From positions 1 through 35,810 of the IMG/VR virus record IMGVR_UViG_2579778748_000004: a stretch of 35,810 nucleotides of DNA; one strand, 5' to 3'. This DNA comes from a virus (taxonomy: Duplodnaviria > Heunggongvirae > Uroviricota > Caudoviricetes). Made by a program: the position numbers and the translations under genes. Positions 1,447-34,024 of the stretch are shown piece by piece. The notes beneath the pieces were generated by a model. It had not been told where the DNA came from, searched no databases, and was given only the letters and a program-made list of their open reading frames with translations. How positions within the stretch are numbered: position 1 is the first letter of the stretch; every line of letters starts with the position of its first letter.

Positions 1447-1533
1447 GCTGAAAAACATAACCCATAAAATGCTAGCTGTACCAGGAACCACCTCCTTAGC
1501 CTGTGTAATCTCCCTTACACGGGCTTATTTTTT
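1447..1533 (+). ncRNA. cyaR: CyaR (RyeE) small regulatory RNA
   Basis: Sequence GCTGAAAAACATAACCCATAAAATGCTAGCTGTACCAGGAACCACCTCCTTAGCCTGTGTAATCTCCCTTACACGGGCTTATTTTTT matches the cyaR sRNA as I recall it; ends in an intrinsic-terminator hairpin plus U-run; sits between yegQ and the prophage. Confidence 0.8.
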
Positions 1534-1536
1534 ACG
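1507..1536. repeat. Prophage attachment core, ogr-proximal copy (30-bp perfect direct repeat)
   Basis: AATCTCCCTTACACGGGCTTATTTTTTACG is identical at 1507..1536 and 33995..34024; overlaps the 3' end of cyaR; the two copies bracket the whole P2-like gene set. Confidence 0.85.
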
Positions 1537-1566
1537 TACAACAAATTGAAATAAAAGGATTTATTT

Positions 1567-1596
1567 CTGGTCACGTCCACACATTGACCACATCGA
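1567..1596. repeat. Phage-arm sequence with a diverged second copy on the host side (34039..34068)
   Basis: CTGGTCACGTCCACACATTGACCACATCGA here versus CTGGTCACCGTCTTCCATTGACCACATCGA beyond the distal att core; about 85% identical. Confidence 0.5.
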
Positions 1597-1597
1597 C

Positions 1598-1622
1598 AAA
1601 AAAAGCCCCTCGACTGAGGGGC
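1598..1622 (-). terminator. Intrinsic terminator downstream of ogr
   Basis: GC-rich hairpin GCCCCTC-GACT-GAGGGGC followed on the minus strand by a run of 7 T; located just 3' of the ogr stop. Confidence 0.6.
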
Positions 1623-1635
1623 TTCCTGTTTCTAA

Positions 1636-1854
1636 TTACATCCACATAATTTGCTGCCCTGACGGCAACGGGTGCGGCCTTACGGCGTGGACTTCTCCCG
1701 GCTTCACGATGTATCGCTGTACCGACTCATAAGTGATGAACGTGGCGCTGCAATTCACGTTCTGACACTGGTGATAACGCTCTTTTGTCGTGTCAGTGAT
1801 ATAGCGGCTTGTACGCGCATGTGCGGCATGCTGGCATAAAGGACAATGAAACAT
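1636..1854 (-). CDS. ogr: Late-gene transcriptional activator Ogr (zinc finger)
   Basis: 72-aa product from the internal ATG at 1854 (MFHCPLCQHAAHARTSRYITDTTKERYHQCQNVNCS...); Cys4 zinc-finger pattern; sits at the end of the tail operon as in P2. Confidence 0.9.
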   Translation of the reverse strand: MFHCPLCQHAAHARTSRYITDTTKERYHQCQNVNCSATFITYESVQRYIVKPGEVHAVRPHPLPSGQQIMWM

Positions 1855-1935
1855 CGCGAGCACCTCTTCCGGTTTTGTTGATGGTGCCATTTTAGTTAAT
1901 TTATCCTTATAAAACAAACAGATAAAATAAAAACA

Positions 1936-3099
1936 TCACTCATTATCTTCTGTTTCGTACTCCACATCAGAAAGCCTGACCTCAAGCTCTAAGGATGTCG
2001 TGAAGCCGCTATTATTCAGAAAGTGTGTCACCTTAGTGATTGTCCAGTCCTGCTCGTCTATGACGCGCTTAAAGCCAGACACTTTGACCGGTGTTTCCGT
2101 GTAAATATCTGCCCGACCGGTAGCCAGGCTGATGGAGAACTCCGCGACGCCCCGTTGCAGTTTGTCCCACTTCGCCTGAGCGGCGCGCATGGCCTGCGCT
2201 TTCGTGGCATATACCGTGGTCAGGGCAAAAACGTTGTCAGCCTCACCTGCCATGTATTCACCTTCGCGCGCTTCCGGTACTTTTGACGCTTTCTTCTGCG
2301 TGACTGGTTTCGCTTTCGGGTGCTCCAGTGCGCGCAGGTGTTTCTCTTTCTTTTTGCGTTTCAGTTTTACCTTCTGCTTTTGTGGCTTCGGGTCTTTGGT
2401 GTGTAACCACTTTGCCGTTACGCCGGTATAGGCTCCACGGTCAGCAATCGCAAAATGATGGCGGTCGCCGTCGCTGCGGGTGATGGTAATCTGAGGGATT
2501 TTTTTACCGCTGGCCGTCACCCCCTGCCCCGCTTTGAGAAACAGCAGTTTTCCCATTTTTACCGACACCTCGCCGCCGTTGCGTTCAGCAAGACGGGTCA
2601 GGAATTTCACATCGGACTCCTGCGACTGGTCGATGTGCGGGATTTTAATTCCGGCCAGTGACGGAGCGACACTGGCTTCCAGCCTGTTACGGGTGGCTAT
2701 CGCCTCAACAATCGCACCGAGCGTGGTGTCATGCCAGGAGCCTTCCCGGCGGGAATTGAGCGTCCCGCGAAAATCTGCACTCCGGGCGCGGATGGTGACC
2801 ACATCCGGCGCGCCCCGGTGTTCAACCTCATCAACGGTAAATTTCCCTTTGCATACCAGGGCAAAACCTTTCCAGCCGATATACACCGTCAGGACAGCGC
2901 CACGAACCGGCAGTCCGACCTGCCCGTCGGCATCGTTCAGTTCAATATCAAGCTGGTCAGCCTCAAAGCCCCGGTTATCCGTCAGGGTCATGCTCATCAG
3001 ACGGTCGCTGATATTGCCGGTAATATCCCTGCTGTCGAGCATCAGCATGTAATCCGGCGTCAGCGTACTGCCTGCATCAAATGTCAGCGCATCCAGCAT
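1936..3099 (-). CDS. D: Tail protein D (late control gene D family)
   Basis: 387 aa, same length as P2 gpD; position between ogr and U; basic K/R-rich linker in the C-terminal half. Confidence 0.85.
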   Translation of the reverse strand: MLDALTFDAGSTLTPDYMLMLDSRDITGNISDRLMSMTLTDNRGFEADQLDIELNDADGQVGLPVRGAVLTVYIGWKGFALVCKGKFTVDEVEHRGAPDVVTIRARSADFRGTLNSRREGSWHDTTLGAIVEAIATRNRLEASVAPSLAGIKIPHIDQSQESDVKFLTRLAERNGGEVSVKMGKLLFLKAGQGVTASGKKIPQITITRSDGDRHHFAIADRGAYTGVTAKWLHTKDPKPQKQKVKLKRKKKEKHLRALEHPKAKPVTQKKASKVPEAREGEYMAGEADNVFALTTVYATKAQAMRAAQAKWDKLQRGVAEFSISLATGRADIYTETPVKVSGFKRVIDEQDWTITKVTHFLNNSGFTTSLELEVRLSDVEYETEDNE

Positions 3100-3578
3100 T
3101 ATTCCGCCCCCGTCATCCCCGTGAATCTGGTCGCCAGACTACCGGCCTTACCGATGAGCGACTCCGCCTGTTTACCGATATCGCCATAAAGCGCGGCCAG
3201 TGATTCATCAACGCGGGTGAGCGACAGCGTAAAATCAATTTTCCGGGGTGTGCCGTCTGCAAAGAAAATACTCCCTGTTTCACTCACCCTGCTGATGACA
3301 TACATGCCGTAAATCATGCCGGTGCCATCCAGCAACGGCCACGCCCGGCCTTCCTCTGCCATCAGCCTGAGCGTGGTCATCGTCAGCTTCCCGCCGGTCA
3401 GTTCGGGATAAAGCACGCCGGCAAGCGTCATGTTTTCCTCACCCACACCGAGAAACTGAAAGGCATCCCGTTTACCGATACGGGAATTTGACGGCCAGCG
3501 ATAATCTGATTCACGCTGCATGGTCTGGTGTGGCAGCGTCTGGCGCATAAAAACAAACATACCTAACGCGAGCATCAT
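3099..3578 (-). CDS. U: Tail protein U
   Basis: 159 aa; overlaps the D start by one base; P2 synteny. Confidence 0.85.
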   Translation of the reverse strand: MMLALGMFVFMRQTLPHQTMQRESDYRWPSNSRIGKRDAFQFLGVGEENMTLAGVLYPELTGGKLTMTTLRLMAEEGRAWPLLDGTGMIYGMYVISRVSETGSIFFADGTPRKIDFTLSLTRVDESLAALYGDIGKQAESLIGKAGSLATRFTGMTGAE

Positions 3579-3592
3579 TTTTCGTCACCTCC

Positions 3593-6040
3593 TTAACCGT
3601 CATGCATCATGCTGGCACGGGCACGCGCACGTTTATCCCGCTCGTATTTTTCGAGCGCATCCTGTAACTGGCGGTCAAGCTGTGTCCCCGGCGCAGTACC
3701 ACCCGTCAGGCTGATGTGATATTCGTTTTTACTCTGGTCCACATAAGAGCGGCCAGCCGGTGCCGTGACTGGCTGATAAGCCTGATAGCCTGCATAAGAG
3801 CTGGTCGCCGGAATATAACCACCGGTGCCATACGTGGCGGCATGAGTTCTGGCGGCGGTCTGGTCAAGTGTGTCTGACTCTTTGTTGATGACCCCGAGCT
3901 TTTCCAGTACCCAGTCAATACCGCTGCGCAGTTTGTTGAACGCATTAAGCGGCAGCATCAACGCGTCAGCCAGTGCCTGCCCGAACATGACGCCCGTGTC
4001 ACGGCAACGGTTCAGGGTGTCCTGTGTGGCTTTAACCGGGGCAATCAGGTTTTTAAACCACTGCCACGCGGCCTGTAACTTTTCGCCCAGCCAGTCAAAC
4101 ACCGGCTTCAGTGGCGTGAACAGTTCTCCCACCGGCGCAAATGCCGCTTTCAGCCCTTCCATCACACCGCCAAAGAATGCGCTGACAGGCTCCCAGTATT
4201 TACGGATAAGCAACGCCCCGGCGACAATGGCGGCCACCACGGCCACAACCGGCCAGCTAATCGCCCCGATGGCCGTCATAACAGCACTGCTAACCGTCGT
4301 GAAGATTGCCCCCATTGCGCCTGCTGCCGCGATAATGGCATTGATGCCGGTGATAACCGGCCAGGCTACAAGACCAATGGTACCGATGATGCCAGTAAGC
4401 GCCAGCGCGCCACCGACAATGAGGCCGATGGTTGACGCCAGTGATTTGTTTTTCTGGATCCAGCCGTCGAGTTTTAACACATACTTTGTGGCCGTCTGAG
4501 TGAGCTTACGCAGTGCGCCTTCCTGCTGGTCAAACAGGTCAATCCCCACTGCCTCATAAGCGGACTGAAACTCTTTAAAGTCACCGCCTAGGTTGTCCTG
4601 CATGATATTTACCAGCTCGGCGGTCTTCCCGTCTGATGCTTTAAACGCAGCGGTCAGTTTGTCCAGCTTTCCGGTTGAGGCGGCAGTCATCAGCACGGCG
4701 GCGGCTGAGCTGGCCTCCTCCCCGAAAATAGTTTTCATGTATTCAGCCTGCTGGGCAGTACCGAGCCGGTTTTTCTCAAAACTGGCCTGCATTTCTTTCA
4801 GAATGGTAAATATTGGCCGTGTGTTTCCCTTGCTGTCTGAGGTTTTCACTCCAAGCTCTTTGAGTGCATCCCATGCTTTTCCCGTCGGTGCCTGCAGGCG
4901 GCTTAACACGGCACGGCTTCCCGTCCCCGCCATTGAGCCTGTGATTTTTGCATCATGCAGCGCCCCGACCATTGCGGCGGTTTCTTCAATGCTGACACCG
5001 GCATTTTTTGCCACAGGTGCGGCATAGGTCAGCGCATCGCTCATGCCGTCAAAATCGGCGGCGGTTTTGTTCATCGTCATGGAGAGAACATCCCCGATAT
5101 GAGCGACCTTATCGTTTGAAAGCTGAAAGGCGGATTTCATCCCCATCAGCAGGGCGGCGTTTTCTTCCATCGTGCGGCGGTTCGCCAGCGCCATATTCAG
5201 CGTGACCGGCGTTGCCGCCTGAATGGCATCAACATCCCCACCCGCTTTCGCGATGATTATCTGTGCACCGGCCGCATCATCCGCCGAGGCGGCGGTATTG
5301 TCGCCGAGCTGGCGCGCCTGTTTGCGTAGTGCGGTCATTTCGGCGGAGTCTTTTGCCACTCCGAGCACGGCCTGCAATTCTGAGTTTTTCTGCGCAAACT
5401 CATAACCGGGCATCAGCAACTTAACTCCGGCCATCGTTCCCGCCGCCGCAATCCCCACACCGGCAGCGCCTACTGAGGCCATATTTCCGGCCAGTTCCTT
5501 TCCTGCCTGATAACGCTGTTTGACTGCGTTAAGTTTTGCCTGTTGTGCACTGACACGCGCCAGTGCATCGCGCTGACGGTTAAGTTGTGCGGTGGTTTCA
5601 CTGATACGGTTTTTCAGCCCCTGCTCATCATGTGCAAGATTGCGGGTATTAATTCCCACAGCGGCCAGTTCCCGCTGCTGGCGTTTAACAGAATCCGTCA
5701 GGCGGTTATATTTCGCCTGTAAGTCCTCCGCCGCACGCTTTGCGGATTCCAGCACTTTCGCCTGAGCACGGGTTGGACGTTCGGTATTTTTAAACTGTGT
5801 GGCAAGGGCTTCGGCCTCCTGCCGTGCCTTTTCAAGTGCATGACCAGTCACGGCGAGCTGTGCACTGGTCTTGCGGAATCCCTCAATACGGGATGCGTGA
5901 CCGTTCAGCTCGCGCAGTGATTTTTGTGTTTCCCGGATATCCCCCGACAGCGACCTGCTCGCTGTACGGATGGATTTAAACGGGCGGGATGCCTGGTCAA
6001 CAGCCCTGAGCAATACCTGTAATTTTACATTGTTACTCAT
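3593..6040 (-). CDS. T: Tail tape-measure protein T
   Basis: 815 aa; coiled-coil N-terminal half and Gly/Ala-rich hydrophobic segments typical of tape-measure proteins; P2 synteny. Confidence 0.9.
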   Translation of the reverse strand: MSNNVKLQVLLRAVDQASRPFKSIRTASRSLSGDIRETQKSLRELNGHASRIEGFRKTSAQLAVTGHALEKARQEAEALATQFKNTERPTRAQAKVLESAKRAAEDLQAKYNRLTDSVKRQQRELAAVGINTRNLAHDEQGLKNRISETTAQLNRQRDALARVSAQQAKLNAVKQRYQAGKELAGNMASVGAAGVGIAAAGTMAGVKLLMPGYEFAQKNSELQAVLGVAKDSAEMTALRKQARQLGDNTAASADDAAGAQIIIAKAGGDVDAIQAATPVTLNMALANRRTMEENAALLMGMKSAFQLSNDKVAHIGDVLSMTMNKTAADFDGMSDALTYAAPVAKNAGVSIEETAAMVGALHDAKITGSMAGTGSRAVLSRLQAPTGKAWDALKELGVKTSDSKGNTRPIFTILKEMQASFEKNRLGTAQQAEYMKTIFGEEASSAAAVLMTAASTGKLDKLTAAFKASDGKTAELVNIMQDNLGGDFKEFQSAYEAVGIDLFDQQEGALRKLTQTATKYVLKLDGWIQKNKSLASTIGLIVGGALALTGIIGTIGLVAWPVITGINAIIAAAGAMGAIFTTVSSAVMTAIGAISWPVVAVVAAIVAGALLIRKYWEPVSAFFGGVMEGLKAAFAPVGELFTPLKPVFDWLGEKLQAAWQWFKNLIAPVKATQDTLNRCRDTGVMFGQALADALMLPLNAFNKLRSGIDWVLEKLGVINKESDTLDQTAARTHAATYGTGGYIPATSSYAGYQAYQPVTAPAGRSYVDQSKNEYHISLTGGTAPGTQLDRQLQDALEKYERDKRARARASMMHDG

Positions 6041-6460
6041 TCGTGTTTCCGCTTCGCCGGAGTGCCTTTTCGCGCCATGTGATGAGTTCGGTCAGGCTCA
6101 TGGGATACAGTTCTGATGGCGGCCAGTGAAATATCACTGCCACATCCGCCATCAGGTCATCGACCGAGAGATTTTTCGGAAACGTTACTGCACCGAGTTC
6201 GGCGACAAAAAACCGACCACCTTACCGGCCAGCGCCACAAGGTCAGGCAGTTCCAGCGCGGCGACCTCCTGTTCGGTCAGCATCGGTGCCGTCATGCGCG
6301 GCAGCACTTTAATCAGTGCATCGACTTCGGAGTTCGCGACCGCAGCCAGACTGACACCGCGCAGCGTCCCGGCATTGGGTTTCATCAGCGTGACCTGTTC
6401 GATAACCTGCTCACCACGCTTGACCGGATTGTCCAGGGTAATCACATTTTCTTTGTTCAT
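6033..6460 (-). CDS. E': Tail assembly chaperone E+E' (product of a programmed -1 frameshift)
   Basis: From the slippery site (plus-strand 6206..6214) the -1 frame stays open to a TAA at 6033..6035, encoding ...DLMADVAVIFHWPPSELYPMSLTELITWREKALRRSGNTNE; that stop overlaps the T start codon. Confidence 0.7.
6185..6460 (-). CDS. E: Tail assembly chaperone E
   Basis: 91 aa; ends just after a GGTTTTTTG slippery sequence; P2 synteny between FII and T. Confidence 0.85.
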   Translation of the reverse strand: MNKENVITLDNPVKRGEQVIEQVTLMKPNAGTLRGVSLAAVANSEVDALIKVLPRMTAPMLTEQEVAALELPDLVALAGKVVGFLSPNSVQ

Positions 6461-6516
6461 GGTTTTCTCACTTCTGAATCAGGGTTAACCGGTCAGCCTG
6501 GCTGACCGGATGACAA

Positions 6517-7035
6517 TCACAGGCCGATATTGCGGCGGTGTTGCTCCAGCCGGTCGACGCCGTTCACCTTCTCAATCATGTTGATGGTGTCGATTTCGAC
6601 CAGCTCCTTACCGTCCATCGTCAGCCGGAAATAGGTGCAGACCACGGAGATTTTCGACTCAGTGTCTTCTCCCTGTTTACCCTCGCCGGTGTCGATTTCT
6701 TTCTGACGGCCACGCATGACCACTTCGACGGCCACCGTTTCGCCGGTATCGTCACGCTGGTAAGAGCCTGCAAAACGAATCGGCACAGCATCCACACCGG
6801 TTGCGGCGTAAAGCTCCCAGATAACCGAATCCGGGAAGCCCCCGAGCGACCACTCCATTGACAGCGCATCGTCATCAAGGCCGAGGTCTACCGGTGCGCT
6901 GCCGTTCATCCCCGCACCGCGATAGTTTTCGAGCTTACGGGTCAGTTTTGGCAGCGTGACGGACTTTGCAACGCCCTGATAGCTGTAGCCGTTCAGAAAG
7001 ACGTTCATTAACTTGAGTTTGCGCGGCATTGCCAT
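6517..7035 (-). CDS. FII: Tail tube protein FII
   Basis: 172 aa; P2 synteny immediately downstream of FI. Confidence 0.85.
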   Translation of the reverse strand: MAMPRKLKLMNVFLNGYSYQGVAKSVTLPKLTRKLENYRGAGMNGSAPVDLGLDDDALSMEWSLGGFPDSVIWELYAATGVDAVPIRFAGSYQRDDTGETVAVEVVMRGRQKEIDTGEGKQGEDTESKISVVCTYFRLTMDGKELVEIDTINMIEKVNGVDRLEQHRRNIGL

Positions 7036-7047
7036 CGGTCAGGCTCC

Positions 7048-8238
7048 TTAATTGCTGTTAACCGAGGTGACCAGATTTGCCAGGTATTTATCGGTAATAC
7101 GCTGGCGCAGGGTCAGGTTTTCAAGAGGAGGCACCGGTGTATAGTCGTAGTCGATATACAGTTTTCCGGCCTTGAGGGTTTCCGCATCGTTGGATTCTTC
7201 GCTGAACCAGCAGGTCGCATCCACGATATAGCCGTTTGTTTTCAGCTCACGGAATTTGGCATTGATGCCGTCAACGATGTCGCGAATCAGCGTTGCGGTG
7301 ATGGGCTTGTCCACCGCCCACATGTGCGCCTCAGCCATCGTGTCGGCCAGCACCTGCGCGGTGCGGGTGTAGTTTTCAAAGAGGAACAGCGGGTCATCAG
7401 AGCAGGTACGGTTACCCCAGAATCGGAAACCGTCACGGCGAATCAGCGTTGTGACACCTGACTCGTTCAACAGGTCAGCATCGGTGCCGGACTCCTGCAA
7501 ATCCCAGAATACAGAGGCACTGATGCCGGTAACACCGTTTACCCCGACGTTGGACAGCGTTTTATGCCAGCCCTGCTCCTGGTCGATTTTAGCGCGCAGG
7601 CCCAGCGCACGGGCGGTGGCATACGCGGTGGCGGTGGTACTGGCGACCGTATCCCATGCGAGGAAATCCGGCCAGATGACCATCAGCTCACGCTGGCTGA
7701 AATTCTGGCGGTAGGCTTTCACCTCGGAAATGGTTTTACAGCCCCATGCACTGATATACCCGAAAGCGCGCAGCTTCTGACAGACTGATGCCAGTGCAAC
7801 CGCCACCTCTTTGGTGTCCAGTCCCGGCACACCGAGAATACGCGGTTTAACACCGGTAACCGACTCCGCCGCCAGCAGGGCTTTCAGTCCGGTGTACTGA
7901 CCGTTTTCGTCGGTGGTGCCGATGATATTGGAAACAGTCTGCGCGAGTTTCGTTTCTTCGTCTTCGCCGGTCCCGTCTTCCACACGCACGACAACGGTGA
8001 CCGGTTTTGACTGGTCGGCGATGGCCTGCAACGATGCCGCCAGCGTGCCTTTTTTACCGGCCTTTGCAATTGCGCTCTGCACATTGGTAATCAGCACCGG
8101 TTTATTGAGGGGGAAGGTTTCCGCATCCGCATCGCTGGCCGTGCAGACCATGCCGACAATGGCCGTGGATACGGTGGAAATGACGCGGGTGCCGTCGTTA
8201 ATCTCCAGCACCTGCACGCCGTGATGATAGTCACTCAT
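7048..8238 (-). CDS. FI: Contractile tail sheath protein FI
   Basis: 396 aa; P2 synteny; GGAG ribosome-binding site upstream of the ATG at 8238. Confidence 0.9.
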   Translation of the reverse strand: MSDYHHGVQVLEINDGTRVISTVSTAIVGMVCTASDADAETFPLNKPVLITNVQSAIAKAGKKGTLAASLQAIADQSKPVTVVVRVEDGTGEDEETKLAQTVSNIIGTTDENGQYTGLKALLAAESVTGVKPRILGVPGLDTKEVAVALASVCQKLRAFGYISAWGCKTISEVKAYRQNFSQRELMVIWPDFLAWDTVASTTATAYATARALGLRAKIDQEQGWHKTLSNVGVNGVTGISASVFWDLQESGTDADLLNESGVTTLIRRDGFRFWGNRTCSDDPLFLFENYTRTAQVLADTMAEAHMWAVDKPITATLIRDIVDGINAKFRELKTNGYIVDATCWFSEESNDAETLKAGKLYIDYDYTPVPPLENLTLRQRITDKYLANLVTSVNSN

Positions 8239-8332
8239 CCGTTTAACTCCGTGGTTAATGGGTGCAACTATTTTCCGTTGGGTAGTACATGAGACGCTAT
8301 TTGACCTAGCTGGTCAGGGGATGAAACAACAG

Positions 8333-8361
8333 ATAAAGAAAAGGCGGGAAATCAGCCCGCC
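8333..8361 (-). terminator. Intrinsic terminator separating the cargo/tail-fibre transcript from the FI operon
   Basis: Hairpin GGCGGG-AAATCAG-CCCGCC followed on the minus strand by TTTTCTTTAT. Confidence 0.55.
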
Positions 8362-9273: not shown

Positions 9274-9398
9274 ACCGGCAACCCATAGTTGGATACTTCG
9301 GTTAAGCTTATCTGCTTTTATTTCAAATGCTCCTGCTAAGCCTTTCGATGTTGAAGCCCTAATAGCCTCTTCGCAAAGAGCCAGATACCGGGCAGCCT

Positions 9399-26024: not shown

Positions 26025-27116
26025 ATGGGTTACGAAATTGATTTTCTAGCTGTTGGCGAAAAAAAAAGCGGCGATGCGATCTGCATCAGATGGGGAAACC
26101 TACATGGTTCAAGAGATGAACAAAAAGTTGTCGTTATTGATGCAGGATATGCCAGCACCGGAGAACAAGTCATTGAGCATATTGAAAAATACTACCGCAC
26201 AAAAACTATTGACTTGCTTATCTCCACACACCCCGATGGTGACCACGTCGGTGGACTTACATCTGTTCTAGAAAATGCAGAAGTAAAAGAGTTTTGGATT
26301 CATAAGCCTTGGGAACATAATCAAGGTCTCGCAAGTGAGTTTGCAGATGGCAGGATAACTGATGCCAGTATTGCAAATCGAATGAAAGAAAACTTACAAA
26401 AAGCTTATGACGCTGTCAAATTAGCGGAAAAAAAAGGAATTGAAATAAAAGAGCCTTTTCAAGGAATGACCTGGGATAATGCTACTCTGGTTGTTATCGG
26501 GCCAACCCAATCTTACTATGAGACTCTAATACCTGATTTCGCAAGAATGCCCAAAAAAGCTGAGGATACAGCTGGATTTGAAGTACTAAAAGCAGTCTTT
26601 GAGTCTGTAGTTGAAAAAACGAAGAAATTTATTGATTACGTTGCTGAATGGTTTACTGATGAAGGTATTGATAATGAAGATACCACCTCGGCACAAAATA
26701 ACTCAAGTGTCATTTTGAAACTTGAGATTGATGGAAGAACGTTAGTGTTCACTGGCGATGCTGGTATAACAGCCTTAGATCAAGCCTCCCAATACATTAA
26801 TAAAGAATCATTAAGATTCATTCAAGTACCTCATCATGGTAGCCGGAGAAATGTAGGCCCTGATGTTCTCGATAAACTTGTTGGTAACATTGTAAATGAA
26901 GGCGAAAAAAGGGAGATAACCGCATTTGTATCATGTGCCCCAGGTTCAGATAAACATCCCCATCAAGCTGTAATTAATGCCTTTACTCGACGAGGAGCGA
27001 AAGTTATCGCCACCGAGGGGCTTGGTAAGTACCATTTTTATAATGCTCCTGAAAGGGCAGGATGGAAAACAGCCACTCCACGATCATACATTAGTAACTA
27101 TAGAACCGAAGAATAA
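26025..27116 (+). CDS. Metallo-beta-lactamase-fold protein, ComEC/Rec2-like, putative nuclease
   Basis: 363 aa with AAGGA ribosome-binding site; motif series VVVIDAGY, THPDGDHVGG (H-x-D-x-D-H), VFTGDAG and VPHHGSR fits the metallo-beta-lactamase fold of the ComEC type as I recall it; AT-rich. Confidence 0.7.
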   Translation: MGYEIDFLAVGEKKSGDAICIRWGNLHGSRDEQKVVVIDAGYASTGEQVIEHIEKYYRTKTIDLLISTHPDGDHVGGLTSVLENAEVKEFWIHKPWEHNQGLASEFADGRITDASIANRMKENLQKAYDAVKLAEKKGIEIKEPFQGMTWDNATLVVIGPTQSYYETLIPDFARMPKKAEDTAGFEVLKAVFESVVEKTKKFIDYVAEWFTDEGIDNEDTTSAQNNSSVILKLEIDGRTLVFTGDAGITALDQASQYINKESLRFIQVPHHGSRRNVGPDVLDKLVGNIVNEGEKREITAFVSCAPGSDKHPHQAVINAFTRRGAKVIATEGLGKYHFYNAPERAGWKTATPRSYISNYRTEE

Positions 27117-27129: not shown

Positions 27130-27750
27130 TTACGGCAGCTTATTATTAACAGCATTTACTCTATATATTATGTATCTTATTTGTTTAATATATGAGACAA
27201 CAAACAAAATAGCAAAAACCGCCAACGTTATTTTAGATAAGCCATATGTCTCGCCAGTAAACCGTCCTACAACGCACAATGTCGCCAAAAGAATAATTGA
27301 CATTGAAAATATCGTCCTATACATATTCGCAATCTCTTGCAAAGTTTCAATTTTTCCATCCACACCACATGCTGACACATAATCTTTATAAGGAGCAAAC
27401 TTAATCAAACGCGATAGTTTTAAAAAAGGTTCCAATACGATAGAACCAATCCGGCCAATGACTAAGCCAACAAAATAATAGAGGACAACATTTTTTATTA
27501 AATCATCGCCAGATAAAACGATATTCGTCATTCTCTCAAGAAGATAAATAAAAAGAGCACCTGGAAAAAGATTATTAAATATATTATATGACGATATTTT
27601 TTCCCATAAACCATCCATACCAATCACCTTACTACAGTTTAAATCAGAGATCATTTTCATTGAAAAATACATATATAGCAAGAAATCTATAGCGATTCTG
27701 ACATCCAACCTGAGTCTATCAGTAGTTAATCTCTTCAGAAAAGAGTGCAT
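27130..27750 (-). CDS. Hypothetical multi-pass membrane protein (about 206 aa)
   Basis: ORF 27130..27762, with ATG at 27750; four to five hydrophobic helices; very AT-rich; convergent with the MBL-fold gene, stops 13 bp apart. Confidence 0.6.
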   Translation of the reverse strand: MHSFLKRLTTDRLRLDVRIAIDFLLYMYFSMKMISDLNCSKVIGMDGLWEKISSYNIFNNLFPGALFIYLLERMTNIVLSGDDLIKNVVLYYFVGLVIGRIGSIVLEPFLKLSRLIKFAPYKDYVSACGVDGKIETLQEIANMYRTIFSMSIILLATLCVVGRFTGETYGLSKITLAVFAILFVVSYIKQIRYIIYRVNAVNNKLP

Positions 27751-27904: not shown

Positions 27905-28049
27905 TCAGCCTCGCGATGGCACAAATGCAAGCGGTTTTAACGGACTTCCGTTTCTTTGCTGACGATTTGGTATTCTCAGACCGTGTTTTAATGCACCTCT
28001 GAGCGCCCTCACGACCGCCGGATCATTCCATTCGATTACCCGTCATCAA
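27905..28049. repeat. Degenerate direct repeat of the A 3' region, copy 1 (spans the A stop codon)
   Basis: About 120 bp at 27931..28049 is roughly 92% identical to 28263..28382 inside A; weaker similarity extends about 25 bp further upstream. Confidence 0.75.
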
Positions 28050-30378
28050 ATTGATTCCACTCTGTTATAGTTGAATATCCCGGCCACTCATCAGCGACCG
28101 GATACGTGAATTTTTTCCCGTCATAATTTACGGTTGCCCCACGCGCCAGCGACTCAAGCTCCCATCGCTGAGGTCTGATACCGTTCTGAGCAAGATCAAC
28201 GCGAATACGGGTAATTTGCAATCGCTCCGACCTGGTCAGCCTGGCTGATGGCGCTATTTCATGCGGTTTTAACGGACTTCCGTTTCTTTGCTGACGATTT
28301 GGTGTTCTCAGTCCGCATTTTAATGCACCTCTGAGCGCCCTCACAACCTCCGGGTCACTCCATTCGATAACACCGTCATCAACCAGATTAAGCACTGCTG
28401 CGGCGTGTTCAGAAGGTGTGGGAGCCGGTAACGAAGTATCACCACCGGTGAGCTTTCCACAGTTATTGACAGGACTCCGAGGCGCGGCGATGCCGCTTTT
28501 TAAAGTCAAAGGCTCAACGACCGGAACTTTCGGCACAATGCGCCAGTCCGTCGTTCTGGTGATATGAATATGACGCGCGCCGAGATGCGGCGCGTAAATG
28601 CCGACCACTCTCCCGACTTCTTCCTCGTACTCGTTAACGTCATCCGACGGGCTACGGGCGACTCTGACAGTCTGGCAATCACGCGGAACATTTGCCCCAC
28701 CCTGCGCGCTGATATACAACGCAAAATCACCACTGTCTGCGGCGGCACGTGCAGCCTCAACTCGTTCGTCAAACTCATCAGCAATGCTGACGCCGCGAGG
28801 CAATTTGCGTAGTTCACGGTAAGCCCCCATTGTCGGCAGGCCAACCGTTTTAAATTGCGGGATGCGCCACGTTGACGCCCATGCGGTAACAGCCGCAGCA
28901 GTATCTTTCAGCGGCCTGCCGGTATCGTTATCGAGCTGACCATCCAGTGCATAGCCATCGATGTTTTTTGAGATGTATTTCGCGATATACCCCGCAGCAC
29001 CGCCCCGGTTAAGATGTTTTGCCTGAAAACGGTTTCGCGCGGCTCCTCTTTCGTCGCCATCCTCTTTGAGCGCATAGCGACGCATGATTTCGATAATCTG
29101 GTTACGCTGGCGTGGATTACAAAAAAGCATCATATGCCAGTGCGGCGTTCCGTCGTGGTGTGGCTCGACGACTCGCAAACCGTAGACCTGTAAATCATTA
29201 TCCTTGAATGCCGTGCGCATCAGGCTCCAGATACGGCAGAGATAACGCTGCGCATCCTTTGGATTAAATGCCTCATCGTTCCAGCCGTGATTAAGCTGAA
29301 CGGTTTTACTTTCGCCTTTTCTGACCTGACGAGTCGGGTGATACTTTGACGGCGCGGTCAGCGTGATAAACATCCCCACATCACCCTCTGCGGCGGCGTA
29401 ACGCTCAATACCGGCAATGGTGTTCATCAGCTCCATCCGGCGAATTTCAGGATTAGAAATACTGCCCATCACCTTACTGATAAGGTCGATGCGCTCGCCG
29501 GTTTCCCTGTTTTCAAGGTCACACGATTTAAGAAATTCCAGATTTGCCTGGCGGCGCGCACGCACATCACGAATGGCGTGTTTACTGGCATAAGGAGAAC
29601 GGTCTTTATTGACCTCCCCGACAGCTATCAGTAACGCTTCATGCCAGCGCATACGCTGGCCTTTAAGCTGATGAGTCCACCACTCATCGTTAAACAGACG
29701 GGCAATGGCAGAATATGCCTGCCTCGTGGTCATCTGCCCTTTACGGTATTTTTTCCAGTAGAGAGGGGAAATATTGAAAGCACGTGCAGCGCCAGCAACA
29801 TGACCATAGAGGTGAGCCTGCGCCTCATCCGTAAACAGCGATTCTTTTTCGCCATGCGCATCCACCCAGGCATCGCTGAGTTCCTCATACATCATGAAAA
29901 GCTGCGATGAGATACGGGCAGCAAACTTTTTCAGCTCCTTGTCATTCATTCCCGGCAGGCGCGCATAGTGGTCACGCTCTGCCAGAAACAGTAACGACGC
30001 GTCGGTGTTCATTTCATGGCGCTGATTCACACGCTCAATGCGCGGCCATAAACGACGCTGAAAAGTGGATGTGAGGAAATAAAACCCGTGTACCGGGCTT
30101 TTATTGCGCCGGATGTAGTCATAGCGTGAAGTAAACAGCGAGCGCAAAAAGTAAGGCAGGCGGTTAATCGTGGATAAAACACCTTGCACCTGACGCATCT
30201 CGTCACGTGTAAGGGGTCTTTCGCGCCCGACGGCCTCGCGTGGCGCGTTCCATGCATAAGCACCGGTAAACGCCTTACCGGTGCCTGCAGCAAATGCTGA
30301 AGGAGGGACAAAACGCCCGGAGGCTTTAACGGCCATATGAGCCAAAAGCCTCTGAACAACGCCTGCTGAGTTGCTCAA
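28036..30378 (-). CDS. A: Replication initiation protein A (rolling-circle HUH endonuclease)
   Basis: 780 aa; HUH-type motif …TPHWHMMLF… and tyrosine pair …YIAKYISKNIDGY…; P2 synteny. Confidence 0.9.
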   Translation of the reverse strand: MSNSAGVVQRLLAHMAVKASGRFVPPSAFAAGTGKAFTGAYAWNAPREAVGRERPLTRDEMRQVQGVLSTINRLPYFLRSLFTSRYDYIRRNKSPVHGFYFLTSTFQRRLWPRIERVNQRHEMNTDASLLFLAERDHYARLPGMNDKELKKFAARISSQLFMMYEELSDAWVDAHGEKESLFTDEAQAHLYGHVAGAARAFNISPLYWKKYRKGQMTTRQAYSAIARLFNDEWWTHQLKGQRMRWHEALLIAVGEVNKDRSPYASKHAIRDVRARRQANLEFLKSCDLENRETGERIDLISKVMGSISNPEIRRMELMNTIAGIERYAAAEGDVGMFITLTAPSKYHPTRQVRKGESKTVQLNHGWNDEAFNPKDAQRYLCRIWSLMRTAFKDNDLQVYGLRVVEPHHDGTPHWHMMLFCNPRQRNQIIEIMRRYALKEDGDERGAARNRFQAKHLNRGGAAGYIAKYISKNIDGYALDGQLDNDTGRPLKDTAAAVTAWASTWRIPQFKTVGLPTMGAYRELRKLPRGVSIADEFDERVEAARAAADSGDFALYISAQGGANVPRDCQTVRVARSPSDDVNEYEEEVGRVVGIYAPHLGARHIHITRTTDWRIVPKVPVVEPLTLKSGIAAPRSPVNNCGKLTGGDTSLPAPTPSEHAAAVLNLVDDGVIEWSDPEVVRALRGALKCGLRTPNRQQRNGSPLKPHEIAPSARLTRSERLQITRIRVDLAQNGIRPQRWELESLARGATVNYDGKKFTYPVADEWPGYSTITEWNQFDDG
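28237..28382. repeat. Degenerate direct repeat of the A 3' region, copy 2 (inside the A coding sequence)
   Basis: Pairs with 27905..28049; within A it encodes ...VDDGVIEWSDPEVVRALRGALKCGLRTPNRQQRNGSPLKPHE. Confidence 0.75.
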
Positions 30379-30601
30379 CCTGCGCGTTTAAATCAGCAAA
30401 AGACTTTGCGCTTCCGGTCAGAATATCGTGATGCATCAGGCCGGAAACGAGCTGGCTTAATTTCGGATAATAACCAACCACCGCCAGCCATTCCTGACCG
30501 GCGTTTTTACCGCTTTCCGCTCTCTTTTTCTCGTGGAGAATAAACTGAAAGCTGTCACTGGTAACGACATAACGTTCGCCAATTTCAATACGAATACTCA
30601 T
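30326..30601 (-). CDS. Small early-region protein, P2 orf83-like
   Basis: 91-aa ORF immediately upstream of and overlapping A; position matches the small ORFs between B and A in P2. Confidence 0.6.
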   Translation of the reverse strand: MSIRIEIGERYVVTSDSFQFILHEKKRAESGKNAGQEWLAVVGYYPKLSQLVSGLMHHDILTGSAKSFADLNAQVEQLSRRCSEAFGSYGR

Positions 30602-30822
30602 GCCGTTCTCCGGTAATGTTTGTTTTTTGCTTCAAAGACTGACTGGCAGGAAACACAACGCGTGGCTGACGGATAAGCCGCACGACGGGCAGCAGGTATT
30701 GGCGCGTCACACTCTTCGCAAACCAGCGCAGAAGCTCCGCAATGTTTTACCCTTGCCGCGTTAATCTGACGCTCCAGTAATTCAGCCTGTTGTTCCTGAA
30801 TAAAATCTACGTTGTCCGGCAT
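30598..30822 (-). CDS. DksA/TraR-family C4 zinc-finger protein, P2 orf82-like
   Basis: 74 aa with C-x2-C…C-x2-C spacing (CEECDAPIP…CVSCQ) characteristic of TraR/DksA-type zinc fingers. Confidence 0.65.
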   Translation of the reverse strand: MPDNVDFIQEQQAELLERQINAARVKHCGASALVCEECDAPIPAARRAAYPSATRCVSCQSVFEAKNKHYRRTA

Positions 30823-31127
30823 TACCAGTTCCTTTTGTCGTTAAGTTTTTTAAATTCATCAGCGCAATAGCTGGCAATTTCTGTCGTTAATTTCGTCAGT
30901 TCATCCACGGAGGAGATTTGCTTGTGAAATACAGCGCGTTTAACAAGTAAATTGACCACATCAGACAGGAGATTTAATTCGTTCTGATAAATCGCGATAA
31001 CAGACTCAGTTATTTCGCGTTTTTCTTTATCAAGACCAAGTTGAATAAGAGATAGATCGCCATTTTTCATAACGGTGATTTTTAAGGCGTTATTCAGTAA
31101 TACAACTGAACGAGAACAGGACATCAA
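30822..31127 (-). CDS. Hypothetical early-region protein, P2 orf81-like
   Basis: 101-aa ORF; early-region synteny. Confidence 0.5.
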
Positions 31128-31381
31128 AGCACCTCCCCGCGAGACAATCCGATATTGTGAAATTTTTCCGACTCCTGACTGAGCAGCTCGACTATCTCTA
31201 CGCGGGATAACTCCGCCTTTGTGATGTGGCGAATCATGGCGTCAAGATGAGAAGAAAAGCGCGTCGCTGCGTCGGCCTGTGCTTCGGTTCTGGCCTGTTG
31301 CAGCAGTAATGCGTATTTACCGCACTGATTTTCAGAAACTGTATGCATGACTTTCTCCAGGCAAAAAGAAGCCCCGCACAA
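31124..31381 (-). CDS. Hypothetical early-region protein, P2 orf80-like
   Basis: 85-aa ORF, possibly starting at an internal ATG near 31348; early-region synteny. Confidence 0.5.
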
Positions 31382-31411
31382 TTAAGTGCGTTAAAAACTC
31401 TGGTTAATTAC

Positions 31412-31912
31412 TTAATGCAGATATTGCTCTGGTTTTACCGACGTCAGAATTGTCGGTGCATACTCAAACAGGCTGAATAATTCACGTAATGCACGGAATA
31501 AGGCATCACGCCAGTAACATGATTCTTCATTAATTCGCCAGTATGGCTGGTTGAATTCTTTTTCAGTCAATCCGGCATGCATAAATAAAGTACGGCGCTG
31601 ACTGACAGTTAAAAAGCTAATATATGCATACTCACTTGCACCGACCTGACGGCGTTTTGAGAATGCCCCACGCAGTTCATCAATTGCACAAACCAGCCGT
31701 TCACGTTCGACGTCGTTCATTTCTTCAAAACGCATCGTTGCGTGACGCTGTTTTAACTGCGCATGGAAGCAAACCGTTAGCCGTTCGCGTTCCATCATCT
31801 GATTATAATAATCGCATGTCTCCTGCCAGCGAGGGACGGCCAGATGCTTACCAATTATCCGGCGCATAGCTGCTGGCTGTTTTTCAACGAGATTGAGCGT
31901 CATCACTGTCAT
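31412..31912 (-). CDS. B: Replication protein B (helicase-loader-like)
   Basis: 166 aa; sequence (MTVMTLNLVEKQPAAMRRIIGKHLAVPRWQ…) matches P2 gpB as I recall it. Confidence 0.85.
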   Translation of the reverse strand: MTVMTLNLVEKQPAAMRRIIGKHLAVPRWQETCDYYNQMMERERLTVCFHAQLKQRHATMRFEEMNDVERERLVCAIDELRGAFSKRRQVGASEYAYISFLTVSQRRTLFMHAGLTEKEFNQPYWRINEESCYWRDALFRALRELFSLFEYAPTILTSVKPEQYLH

Positions 31913-32103
31913 TTCCAGACCCTCCGGCTTTTCAGAAAGGTCAGAGCCTTTTTTAACGGACTCTGTTTTTTGGTGCGGATAATGATTCCCTTACGCCCCT
32001 TACCGTGGGTGATGGTGAAGTCAATCGCCCTGGGGCTTTCGTTACGCAATAACTGAGCAATACAACGAGGCTCATTCATACGGTTCTCCTTAACGTGGTT
32101 CAC
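31909..32103 (-). CDS. Small early-region protein, P2 orf78-like
   Basis: 64-aa basic ORF between cox and B. Confidence 0.5.
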   Translation of the reverse strand: MNHVKENRMNEPRCIAQLLRNESPRAIDFTITHGKGRKGIIIRTKKQSPLKKALTFLKSRRVWK

Positions 32104-32365
32104 CGAGACCTAACCACATCAACCAGCCGTCACGAATCTCTTTAGGACGGCTTTCATAAGCCAGTTTTAGTCCGTTATTCCATGCCGGAAGGTATACCCA
32201 ATATTCACCAGCACGCCCCGATACTGACTGAGGGTCAGTAATCTCAATAACTGGTAATTTCCCTTTCTCAATCATGCCCCTTACAGCTCTTGGAGTTTTA
32301 CCAATGAGTTTTGCAAACTCCTGATAAGGCACGGCATCAGTCACGCTTACAAGCTGTCTATTCAT
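32090..32365 (-). CDS. cox: Cox (excisionase and repressor of the lysogenic promoter)
   Basis: 91 aa; C-terminal half …GRAGEYWVYLPAWNNGLKLAYESRPKEIRDGWLMWLGLGEPR matches P2 Cox as I recall it; divergent from C. Confidence 0.85.
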   Translation of the reverse strand: MNRQLVSVTDAVPYQEFAKLIGKTPRAVRGMIEKGKLPVIEITDPQSVSGRAGEYWVYLPAWNNGLKLAYESRPKEIRDGWLMWLGLGEPR

Positions 32366-32486
32366 CTGCTACGATTCTCCCTTAGTGCTTCTAATGGCTC
32401 CTAATGGCTAATTATTGCCTAAAAGGATAACTCCAGAAGCGCAACATTTCACACTATCAGCAAGAAATTACGCAATCGGAGTAATT
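32366..32486. promoter_or_regulatory. Immunity switch region (face-to-face early and lysogenic promoters) with direct-repeat operator
   Basis: Intergenic region between divergent cox and C; direct repeats CTAATGGCT at 32391..32399 and 32401..32409, one helical turn apart. Confidence 0.6.
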
Positions 32487-32786
32487 ATGTCAATAGACGT
32501 TTCGGAGAAGTTGAAGCTAATCCGTGAATCTGAAAGGTTAAACCGTAAAGAATTCAGTGAATTAACTGGTGTAGCCTACAGCTCACTTTCGAGCTATGAG
32601 AGCCGGTCAAAAAACGCTGGAGTTGAAGCCATAATGAAGGTCTTACAACATCCCAGATTTACTAAATATACTTTGTGGTTCATGACTGATCAGGTAGCTC
32701 CAGAAGCCGGGCAAATTGCGCCCGCTCTCGCACACTTTGGGCAAAACGAAACAACGTCGCCCCACTCCGGTCAAAAGACTGGTTAA
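32487..32786 (+). CDS. C: Immunity repressor C
   Basis: 99-aa product from the ATG at 32487 with GGAG ribosome-binding site; C-terminus …FTKYTLWFMTDQVAPEAGQIAPALAHFGQNETTSPHSGQKTG resembles P2 C; the ORF-track start at 32415 is an upstream extension. Confidence 0.8.
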   Translation: MSIDVSEKLKLIRESERLNRKEFSELTGVAYSSLSSYESRSKNAGVEAIMKVLQHPRFTKYTLWFMTDQVAPEAGQIAPALAHFGQNETTSPHSGQKTG

Positions 32787-32901
32787 CAATTTATCGCGAA
32801 TATATTCATCACAAGTGCCTACTATTGGTGGCTAAATTTCAGCCACCACGAAAAAAGCGATTAGTAGTAGCAAAAAAAAGTACCACTCGGAGGGTTTTCT
32901 G

Positions 32902-33915
32902 ATGGCAATCAAAAAACTCGATGATGGTCGATATGAAGTGGACATCCGCCCTACTGGACGTAACGGAAAACGCATCCGTAGGAAGTTTGATAAGAAAAGC
33001 GAAGCTGTCGCTTTCGAAAAATACACGTTGTACAACCACCACAATAAAGAATGGCTATCAAAACCAACAGACAAACGACGTCTGTCGGAACTGACACAGA
33101 TCTGGTGGGATTTAAAGGGTAAACACGAAGAGCATGGGAAATCTAATCTTGGAAAAATTGAAATCTTCACAAAAATAACGAATGACCCATGCGCATTTCA
33201 AATCACGAAATCCCTTATCAGCCAGTACTGCGCCACCCGAAGAAGTCAGGGTATTAAACCTTCGAGTATCAATCGTGATTTAACATGTATTAGCGGCATG
33301 TTTACAGCCCTGATTGAAGCGGAGTTATTCTTTGGTGAGCACCCTATCAGAGGGACAAAGAGGCTTAAGGAGGAAAAACCAGAAACAGGCTATCTCACAC
33401 AGGAAGAAATTGCCTTACTGCTTGCAGCACTTGACGGCGACAACAAAAAGATTGCGATTCTTTGCCTGAGTACAGGAGCACGTTGGGGAGAAGCAGCTCG
33501 TTTGAAAGCAGAAAATATCATCCATAACCGCGTCACGTTTGTTAAAACGAAAACAAACAAACCACGCACCGTCCCGATCTCAGAGGCTGTTGCCAAAATG
33601 ATCGCGGATAACAAACGAGGTTTTTTATTCCCTGATGCTGATTACCCTCGCTTCAGACGAACAATGAAAGCAATAAAACCGGATTTGCCAACGGGGCAAG
33701 CCACACATGCACTAAGGCACAGCTTTGCCACTCATTTCATGATTAATGGAGGAAGTATTATCACGCTACAACGGATACTAGGTCACACGCGGATTGAGCA
33801 AACTATGGTTTACGCTCATTTTGCGCCAGAGTACCTTCAGGACGCCATTTCTCTTAATCCGCTAAGAGGTGGTACTGAAGCCGAGAGTGTCCACACAGTG
33901 TCCACAGTAGAGTAA
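32902..33915 (+). CDS. int: Tyrosine integrase Int
   Basis: 337 aa; tyrosine-recombinase catalytic region (…HALRHSFATHFM…ILGHTRIEQTMVYAHF…); located next to the att core. Confidence 0.9.
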   Translation: MAIKKLDDGRYEVDIRPTGRNGKRIRRKFDKKSEAVAFEKYTLYNHHNKEWLSKPTDKRRLSELTQIWWDLKGKHEEHGKSNLGKIEIFTKITNDPCAFQITKSLISQYCATRRSQGIKPSSINRDLTCISGMFTALIEAELFFGEHPIRGTKRLKEEKPETGYLTQEEIALLLAALDGDNKKIAILCLSTGARWGEAARLKAENIIHNRVTFVKTKTNKPRTVPISEAVAKMIADNKRGFLFPDADYPRFRRTMKAIKPDLPTGQATHALRHSFATHFMINGGSIITLQRILGHTRIEQTMVYAHFAPEYLQDAISLNPLRGGTEAESVHTVSTVE

Positions 33916-33994
33916 CGTTTAAGGGCTTTCAGTGGTAATTTATGCCGCTCAAACCCGCATTGTACCGTTGAAAGCCCCTACTGGTGACACCCTA

Positions 33995-34024
33995 AATCTC
34001 CCTTACACGGGCTTATTTTTTACG
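33995..34024. repeat. Prophage attachment core, int-proximal copy
   Basis: 30 bp identical to 1507..1536, about 80 bp downstream of the int stop. Confidence 0.85.

Follow-up and report, generated by a model that had tools for sequence, protein, structure and literature searches.

A P2-like prophage with uncharacterized hotspot cargo at the 3' end of cyaR in Escherichia coli

The cyaR locus and the attachment site cores

The window, that is, the whole stretch of 35,810 nucleotides analyzed here, opens with the left bacterial flank, yegQ/trhP (1..1362, plus strand, annotated in RefSeq on the identical record NZ_AP022049.1). A single full-length copy of the cyaR (ryeE) small RNA gene (1445..1530, plus strand) follows, matching Rfam family RF00112 over model positions 1-85/85 with a score of 100.7 bits (gathering score, 47). 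Neither CyaR nor the 82 nt upstream of it differs from K-12, and the promoter region is likewise identical. The right bacterial flank (34025..35810, no strand assigned) contains a relic resembling the P2 P arm (34038-34068, to the right of the int-proximal core described below), yegR (34180-34497, minus strand), and yegS (34911-35810, plus strand). The alignments confirm that the predicted prophage sits between yegQ/trhP-cyaR and yegR-yegS.

A repeat search of the window identified AATCTCCCTTACACGGGCTTATTTTTTACG at 1507-1536 and again at 33995-34024, the two copies being 100% identical and separated by 32,488 bp from start to start. The original prediction, in which a perfect 30-bp direct repeat brackets a P2-like prophage, was exact in its coordinates, and the prophage assignment held as well, given that the gene set matches that of P2 and the boundaries are the P2 att core. 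Specifically, the repeat is the reverse complement of the annotated 27-nt attP core of P2 (P2 24356-24382), extended by the 3 nt that follow in P2, and because of that it was taken to be nonrandom. The 27-nt P2 core AATCTCCCTTACACGGGCTTATTTTTT is accordingly present on both sides of the prophage, together with P2-type Int and arm sites. In terms of the P2 prophage map, the ogr-proximal core (1507..1536), assigned by the repeat search, the comparison with P2 attP, and its fold, is attR, and the int-proximal core (33995..34024), which lacks a terminator hairpin, is attL; neither core is assigned a strand. The int-side junction is 100% identical to P2 attP over 144 nt, and the ogr-side junction differs from it by 3 substitutions and a 1-nt gap over ∼153 nt. 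P2-type IHF and Int P-arm binding sites are located at 1532..1596 on the minus strand (32/34 and 28/28 positions, respectively, shared with the annotated P2 sites). The Int P' arm and Cox-binding region (33881..33978, minus strand) are 100% identical to P2, with 27/27 positions shared in the P' arm and 74/74 in the att Cox region. The tyrosine integrase gene int (32902..33915, plus strand) encodes a protein 99.7% identical to P2 Int. A 70% match to the core repeat family at 27122-27151 was considered as a third core copy and dismissed, being a hairpin between convergent cargo genes and not an att site.

The cyaR terminator hairpin occupies positions 1498-1525 and is followed by a U-tract. It folds with -15.9 kcal/mol (z = -7.0), versus -3.5 kcal/mol (z = 0.39) for the int-proximal core copy, which has no such fold. 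The proposal that the ogr-proximal core forms this terminator holds for the loop, 3' arm, and U-tract; of the 5' stem arm, just the final 2 nt lie within the core, the remainder being bacterial DNA outside the repeat. Integration leaves cyaR unchanged in sequence and would keep its 3' end functional, as had been predicted: the sequence is the same as in K-12, and the hairpin folds at the ogr-proximal copy only. Rfam detected no further, partial cyaR copy at the int-proximal core (E ≤ 0.1), a possibility that had also been considered.

Core genes, operons, and cis-acting sites

All 42 P2 proteins were compared against the window by tblastn, and 37 of them matched, in P2 order, between the repeats. 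Each of these 37 homologs starts with ATG and contains no stop or frameshift; identities range from 64.6 to 100%, mostly 93 to 100%, and P2 length is kept in all except H, a variable tail fiber with 55 additional amino acids, and A, with 5. For orf30, fun(Z), orf91, tin, and old, no match was found in the window. The original prediction of a full P2 gene set is therefore valid for the 37 core genes but not for these five, which are absent, with other cargo carried instead. Likewise, the impression that there are no obvious frameshifts or truncations is borne out for the core genes, whereas one nonessential cargo gene is frameshifted. Comparison with P2, which had been proposed along with the prediction, shows every essential gene to be free of truncations and frameshifts.

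Next to the left core, ogr (1636-1854, minus strand) encodes a protein 100% identical to P2 Ogr, with its terminator, placed by comparison with P2, at 1602-1624 on the same strand (combined region, 1602..1854). The F operon (1936..8238, minus strand), comprising D, U, T, E/E+E', FII, and FI (tail sheath, tube, and tape measure), is full length at 98-100% identity; the E+E' -1 frameshift product is intact, and the slippery site is identical to that of P2. A three-way alignment with P2 and WPhi places a WPhi-type PF late promoter region with the motif TGT-N12-CCA at 8239..8345 (minus strand). The V operon (10344..15473, minus strand), recognized from P2 protein matches, consists of V, W, J, I, H, and G, with H (724 amino acids) and G being 72% and 86% identical to their P2 counterparts. 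The S-V intergenic region with the PV promoter (15474..15539, minus strand) lacks orf30 and tO and differs from WPhi at one position of the stretch that was aligned. It is followed by the O operon (15540..21740, minus strand), with O, N, M, L, X, Y, K, lysA, lysB, lysC, R, and S (capsid, small terminase, lysis, and tail completion) at 93.6-100% identity and full length. P (large terminase) and Q (portal) occupy 21914..24720 on the plus strand (99.7% identity), followed by the tQ terminator (24726-24747, 22/22 positions as in P2) and, beside Q, the cos site GGCGAGGCGGGGAAAGCAC (24890..24908, no strand assigned, 19/19 nt as in P2). P2 protein matches define the early operon (28036..32365, minus strand), which contains cox, orf78, B, orf80-83, and A (766 amino acids). 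The ori nick region within gene A (28458-28498) is the same as in P2 at 41/41 positions (ori ±20 nt), and PP/PO agree with the annotated P2 sites at 29/31.

In sum, the prophage is complete by sequence, with all structural, lysis, replication, regulatory, and recombination genes of P2, along with cos, ori, late promoters, and att arm sites. P2 itself (NC_001895.1; 33.6 kb compared with 32.5 kb for the prophage) has the same gene order, and its cos, ori, attP core, Int arm sites, and Cox region are identical to those of the prophage; by megablast, the left 23.5 kb of the window is 96.7-96.8% identical to P2 over 89-90%. The departures from P2 are in the usual mosaic places, namely, immunity, the tail-fiber tip, the loss of orf30, and the cargo of two hotspots. 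WPhi (NC_005056.1) shares the absence of orf30, its late genes are ∼96% identical at the DNA level, and its PF region is nearly identical by eye. Conversely, the integrase, attachment site, C, and Cox of WPhi differ from those of the prophage, as does its cargo (orf44, dcm methylase, orf96, and orf98).

Immunity region

The C-cox switch and repressor C gene (32366..32786, plus strand) include a switch region that is not alignable to P2 and that contains a 9-bp direct repeat, CTAATGGCT, at 32391 and 32401. Repressor C (32487-32786) has an HTH_3 domain and is 64.6% identical to P2 C, with the divergence in the N-terminal half. Cox is 83.5% identical to P2 Cox; the 15 of the 91 residues that differ are within the N-terminal 60. 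By sequence comparison, the predicted immunity type, as given by C, the N-terminal part of Cox, and the switch region, is different from that of P2. A scan of the C-cox spacer and of the Cox region at att for the P2 cox-box consensus TTAAAGNCA at ≤1 mismatch gave no matches even in P2's own annotated att region and so carries no weight on Cox/site compatibility.

The C/Cox switch and the Ogr late activator are of the P2 type and not the 186 type, with no CI, Apl, CII, or Tum and no LexA control. P2 is classically noninducible. Because of this, and because no LexA box (CTGT-N8-ACAG) was found in the window, mitomycin C is a poor induction test for this prophage. The possibility that a 145-amino-acid cargo gene of the TO hotspot encodes an SOS antirepressor similar to 186 Tum was considered and rejected in view of the missing LexA box and the lack of a Pfam match.

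Cargo of the Z/fun and TO hotspots

The Z/fun hotspot carries a gene for a 433-amino-acid coiled-coil, predicted-membrane protein (8749..10049, minus strand) of the family phrog_34659, in a region with a GC content of 0.40. The gene is split into two ORFs, 9399-10049 and 8749-9273, that match the PHROG family at 1-215/433 and 260-433/433, respectively. In an alignment with the intact copy of RS571, the single gap is a 1-nt deletion that shortens an A7 run to A6 at ∼9404-9410. By its sequence, then, this nonessential gene indicates some decay. The family includes >1,000 homologs of uniform length and occurs in P2-like prophages, and also in an integrase/relaxase island, as cargo of a single gene; in another strain, the gene is interrupted by an IS1 insertion. 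Searches of Pfam, NCBIfam, and PADLOC with the 433-amino-acid protein yielded weak coiled-coil-type matches only and no Pfam domain. An AlphaFold2 model is all helical (pLDDT, 72.7; pTM, 0.34), and a Foldseek comparison against the PDB returned 193 matches with E ≤ 10, none of which reached E ≤ 0.001. Those ranked highest are long helical proteins and were read as noise.

The TO hotspot, in the Q-A interval, starts with genes of 64 amino acids (25232-25426, minus strand, phrog_2454) and 145 amino acids (25425-25862, plus strand, phrog_2266). These are followed by a gene for a 363-amino-acid hydrolase of the ComEC-type metallo-β-lactamase (MBL) fold (26025..27116, plus strand), which matches PADLOC PDC-M48B (E = 1.1e-100), Pfam Lactamase_B, and, in the PDB, the ComEC MBL domain; its NCBIfam matches to Avs1a and ComEC are weak and far under the cutoff. 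A RefSeq CDS at 27130..27618 on the minus strand encodes a 162-amino-acid protein with hydrophobic stretches that matches PDC-M48A (E = 1.5e-50). The two genes are convergent and share a hairpin at 27122-27146. Finally, a relic of the 3' end of a second gene A is located at 27915..28039 (minus strand); it is an 89% copy of 28247-28371 and accounts for the second tblastn HSPs of gpA.

PDC-M48 is a candidate defense system of PADLOC that consists of genes A and B; both HMMs are strongly matched, and the two genes are adjacent. Here, they are convergent and accompanied by two further small genes. The PDC-M48-like cassette lies in the Q-A hotspot of P2-like prophages in 8/8 loci shown. A literature search retrieved no paper on PDC-M48, which is a candidate only.

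Occupied, empty, and remnant sites

Deleting the segment between the cores restores exactly an empty site that occurs in nature. When the flanks are joined over one core, the resulting 913 nt are 100% identical to the empty site of EC21Z-151 (NZ_CP101197.1), and this composite is covered to ≥80% in one place by 4,566 of the 5,426 complete E. coli genomes. The cyaR 3' end of the empty site in EC21Z-151 is the same as here, in agreement with the integration model, which a differing allele would contradict. An int-core-yegR junction identical to that of the window is present in 809/5,426 complete E. coli genomes (∼15%).

As had been predicted, K-12 holds just an ogrK/yegZ remnant at this locus. 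Alignment shows that the remnant (ogrK and the D' pseudogene, yegZ) lies at the same site and in the same orientation as the prophage, with 97.4% identity to window positions 900-2148, from yegQ through cyaR, the core, the P arm, and ogr to the 3' part of D. Of the prophage, K-12 retains only the core, the P arm, ogrK, and the D' fragment (window 1507-2148), joined at TACACGGGC to a partial core (window 34004); the missing part, window 2149-34003, begins within D and ends within the int-proximal core.

Both the site and the arrangement of P2-type integration at cyaR/ryeE are already known and common. The gene has been listed as the insertion site of the P2-type prophages of E. coli W and B and of “ogr-D'” of K-12 (PMC3032704), and ryeE has been described as “previously known to be targeted by phages” (PMC3603311). 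Wphi2 of E. coli W and P2*B of E. coli B thus share the insertion site, cyaR RNA (PMC3032704, Table 2), but probably differ from the present prophage in cargo and immunity.

These comparisons make it very likely that the window contains a temperate P2-group phage (Peduovirus), 32,488 bp long and complete by sequence, that integrated in a single event at the preferred E. coli site of P2, the cyaR 3' end, and left cyaR unharmed. No observation speaks against what the prophage is or where it lies. An origin in two events, whereby a newer P2-like phage recombined with, or inserted beside, an older remnant of the ogrK-D' type, is highly improbable. K-12 demonstrates that remnants occur at cyaR, and the resemblance of 34038-34068 to the P2 P arm is well above that of shuffled sequences (score of 38 versus 15.8 ± 2.1, with a maximum of 25). 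However, the same relic is found in the empty-site strain and in K-12, and hence it predates the prophage and is no part of it. The window contains one ogr, one D, and one int, and the repeat search revealed neither a second P2 gene set nor a third core copy; the sole phage duplication is the A' relic of 125 nt in the TO hotspot. Moreover, excision of the segment between the cores yields an existing empty site exactly.

A single integration would have proceeded by the P2 Int/IHF mechanism. The attP core matches the bacterial site over 30 nt that correspond to the loop, descending arm, and U-tract of the cyaR terminator, and recombination within this identity would duplicate the core. The ogr-proximal copy has the bacterial 5' stem arm upstream, and cyaR and its terminator are therefore unchanged in sequence; the int-proximal copy has phage DNA upstream and forms no hairpin.

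Viability and significance

P2-like phages need Int and Cox for excision. We infer that the prophage can probably still excise and form plaques. That it is cryptic despite intact reading frames, through missense changes or because the Cox/C module is mismatched to the P2-type att and operator sites, is possible, if on the unlikely side. The C allele is absent among the isolated phages in the phage collection, 15 substitutions fall within the first 60 residues of Cox, yet the Cox-binding region at att matches P2 at 100%, and one cargo gene is frameshifted and an A' fragment is a relic. In addition, a 2026 NAR survey of P2-like prophages (PMC13586616) identified at least one pseudogene in 98% of them. 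The frameshift and the relic, however, are confined to accessory DNA; the 37 core genes are intact, with the lengths and identities given above, and every cis site checked is conserved. The combination of int/att with C/cox is found in several genomes, which argues against a recent dead-end hybrid. The only record in the phage collection with this C repressor allele, ON470606.1 (“phage vB_EcoM-720R8”), was considered as an isolated phage of the same immunity. Since it contains yegR and yegS, it is a prophage excerpt from the same site and no evidence of viability.

The significance of these findings goes little beyond annotation. In WP4-S17-ESBL-08 and its relatives, the classic P2 site is occupied by a P2-type prophage that is heteroimmune and complete by sequence, which adds another example of an sRNA terminator that is used as attB by a phage with no damage to the gene. 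The ogrK-D' remnant of K-12 can be understood directly as a derivative of such an element by deletion. The prophage could serve as a helper for P4-like satellites, and it is a source of two uncharacterized hotspot cargo modules.

The 433-amino-acid protein gene and the TO cargo genes are the sole parts without an existing explanation, and the assignment of the prophage is unaffected by them. It is doubtful, although conceivable, that the 433-amino-acid protein is a single-gene abortive-infection or exclusion factor, that the MBL and membrane-protein cassette is a real antiphage system, or both. If the 433-amino-acid protein does act in abortive infection or exclusion, its loss by the A7-to-A6 deletion and by IS1 might reflect the cost of carrying it, or the A run might switch the gene on and off by slippage.

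Integration site and prophage boundaries

The window is the reverse complement of NZ_AP022049.1 positions 1823610-1859419 (the E. coli WP4-S17-ESBL-08 chromosome), with 0 mismatches over 35,810 nt. Bacterial genes lie on both sides: yegQ/trhP (1-1362, + strand) and cyaR on the left, and yegR (34180-34497, - strand) and yegS (34911-35810, + strand) on the right. A repeat search of the window recovered the perfect direct repeat of the original prediction at exactly the predicted coordinates: AATCTCCCTTACACGGGCTTATTTTTTACG is present at 1507-1536 and 33995-34024, in two copies that are 100% identical and 32,488 bp apart. This sequence is the reverse complement of the annotated 27-nt attP core of P2 (P2 24356-24382), extended by the three bases that follow the core in P2. 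Outward from the core, the ogr-side junction differs from P2 attP by 3 substitutions and a 1-nt gap over ~153 nt, and the int-side junction matches it over 144 nt without substitutions or gaps.

Joining 1200-1536 to 34025-34600 yields a 913-nt composite with a 100% identical counterpart in the EC21Z-151 chromosome (NZ_CP101197.1), where yegR comes immediately after yegQ-cyaR. Of the 5426 complete E. coli genomes, 4566 cover the composite to at least 80% in one place. K-12, as predicted, holds only a remnant at the same site. Its alignment to window positions 900-2148 (97.4% identity) spans cyaR, the core, the P arm, ogrK, and the 3' part of D; after 2148 it resumes at 34004, within the second core (junction ...GAGAACTCTGC/TACACGGGCTTATTTTTTT), so that the ogrK-D' remnant is explained as a deletion derivative of such an element.

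The prophage is bounded by P2 att cores, its recombination genes and sites are of the P2 type, cyaR is unchanged, and the precise empty site exists; the identification of a P2-like prophage at cyaR is confirmed and its interpretation supported, with minor corrections. Going by established P2 biology, attP would have recombined with the terminator of cyaR through the action of Int and IHF, C would keep the prophage lysogenic, and both Int and Cox would be required for excision. P2 is classically non-inducible, and no LexA box (CTGT-N8-ACAG) was found in the window, which makes mitomycin C an unsuitable test of this prophage. The int-core-yegR junction (33600-34400) is covered to at least 80% in 809 of the 5426 complete genomes (~15%), so the finding is correct but ordinary. 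Indeed, cyaR/ryeE is already known as a target of P2-type phages: the "cyaR RNA" is the site of Wphi2 in E. coli W, P2*B in E. coli B, and ogr-D' in K-12 (Archer et al. 2011; PMC3032704), and ryeE was a previously known phage target (Bobay et al. 2013; PMC3603311).

Bacterial DNA just to the right of the int-proximal core (34038-34068) resembles the P2 Int P-arm segment (1567-1596), with 31 aligned columns and a score of 38 versus 15.8 +/- 2.1 for shuffles. Because this segment is shared by the empty-site strains and K-12, the "empty" attB seems to retain part of the right end of an older P2-type element.

The cyaR terminator

CyaR is present as one full-length copy at 1445-1530 (100.7 bits against an Rfam gathering score of 47). 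There were no further Rfam RNA matches in the window, even at E <= 0.1, and no tRNA gene was found in it. In the CyaR terminator, 1498-1508 pairs with 1515-1525 to give an 11-bp hairpin, which is followed by UUAUUUUUU (-15.9 kcal/mol; z = -7.0). The core was proposed to form this terminator. Since the core starts at 1507, it completes the hairpin: the loop, the U-tract, and all of the 3' arm come from it, as do the two final bases of the 5' arm, but the rest of that arm lies in bacterial DNA beyond the repeat. At the int-proximal core, which is preceded by phage sequence, no such fold forms (-3.5 kcal/mol; z = 0.39). K-12 MG1655 has an identical CyaR sequence and is also identical over the preceding 82 nt, within which the promoter should be located. 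As the two core copies are identical, the cyaR sequence is the same wherever strand exchange fell within the core.

Phage genes and cis-acting sites

In a megablast search, P2 and other Peduovirus genomes were 96-97% identical to the left 23.5 kb over 85-90% of the query. All 42 annotated genes of P2 (NC_001895.1) were translated and searched against the window. The predicted full P2 gene set was borne out for 37 of them, in P2 order and on the strands expected for a prophage (left to right, ogr...D-FI / G-V / S-O / P-Q / cos / A-cox / C / int), but no match in the window was obtained for orf30, fun(Z), orf91, tin, and old, all of them genes that the P2 record marks as non-essential. When matches were extended to start and stop codons, all 37 homologues began with ATG and 35 had the same length as in P2, the exceptions in length being H (724 aa versus 669 in P2) and A (766 aa versus 761). 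The E+E' product (-1 frameshift) is intact, and its slippery sequence is identical to that of P2. Protein identities to P2 are 93.6-100%, except for H (72%), G (86%), Cox (83.5%), and C (64.6%).

The tail fiber gene H (10873-13047, - strand) has a conserved N terminus and a divergent C-terminal part that includes a Gp34-type trimerization domain, and it contains a 76-nt internal repeat pair (12322-12397 and 12454-12529; 82%). This prophage probably has a host range other than that of P2.

Scored as identical positions against the annotated P2 sites, cos (24890-24908) matched at 19/19, the ori nick region at 41/41, the Int P arm at 28/28, the Int P' arm at 27/27, the Cox-binding region at 74/74, the IHF site at 32/34, the PP/PO activator site at 29/31, the ogr promoter at 28/30, and the ogr terminator at 23/24; tQ and tB were perfect. 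The P2 PV and PF activator sites had no match in the window. In direct alignments with phage WPhi (NC_005056.1), which likewise lacks orf30, the S-V intergenic region showed one mismatch within the aligned stretch and the PF region was near-identical; by this comparison, the non-P2 PV/PF regions represent a previously known variant rather than lesions.

Immunity region

The window contains nothing that corresponds to the P2 Pe/Pc/operator region, consistent with the divergent repressor C, and the C-cox switch region (32366-32486) cannot be aligned to P2. The C-terminal half of C is identical to that of P2 C, whereas the N-terminal HTH half has diverged; Cox differs from P2 Cox at 15 positions, all within the first 60 residues. 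Two direct copies of a 9-bp sequence, CTAATGGCT, lie in the C-cox spacer at 32391 and 32401 (10-bp spacing) and are a candidate operator pair for the immunity type of this prophage. Within the phage collection, this C allele was found only in ON470606.1, itself a prophage excerpt from the same site, and no isolated phage exceeded 78% identity. Many immunity classes are known among P2-like coliphages (PMC3448106).

Hotspot cargo

The Z/fun hotspot (8239-10346; GC 0.40), one of two accessory cargo sites of P2-like phages, carries one 433-aa gene of PHROG family 34659 (phrog_34659). The expectation of no frameshifts or truncations held for the P2 homologues but not for this cargo gene (8749-10049, - strand), which is split into ORFs 9399-10049 and 8749-9273; in the alignment, the sole difference from the intact copy of strain RS571 is one A lost from an A7 run at ~9404-9410. 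The gene is carried by 19 complete genomes; among the records listed for it, some show it intact, others show it frameshifted and annotated as two ORFs, and one, from an E. coli strain, shows it interrupted by IS1. Two more frameshifted copies are divided into ORFs at the same boundaries as here, in backgrounds that differ by SNPs. The protein has no Pfam domain and no structural match. Its family comprises >1000 homologues of uniform length (~430 aa), and a Kosakonia P2-like prophage and a Stenotrophomonas integrase/MobA island also carry members as single-gene cargo.

The second cargo site, the TO hotspot between Q and A (24921-28056; GC 0.39), carries a conserved four-gene cassette (25232-27762) encoding proteins of 64, 145, 363, and 162 aa. 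The 363-aa protein is a ComEC-type MBL-fold hydrolase matched by PADLOC to PDC-M48B (1.1e-100); the 162-aa protein, with hydrophobic stretches and encoded convergently with the MBL gene, matches PDC-M48A (1.5e-50). This PDC-M48-like pair is a candidate defense system. The contig index lists the exact MBL protein in 1823 blocks, and in all 8 of the loci shown the cassette lies in the Q-A interval of a P2-like prophage. Just downstream of the A stop codon lies a 125-nt relic of the 3' end of a second gene A (27915-28039), an 89% copy of the gene A segment 28247-28371 and probably a recombination scar from a cargo swap at the TO hotspot. P2 hotspots are defense loci that are rapidly exchanged, leaving small recombination relics (PMC9122126; PMC13586616), and the cargo and relic of this prophage fit such exchange.
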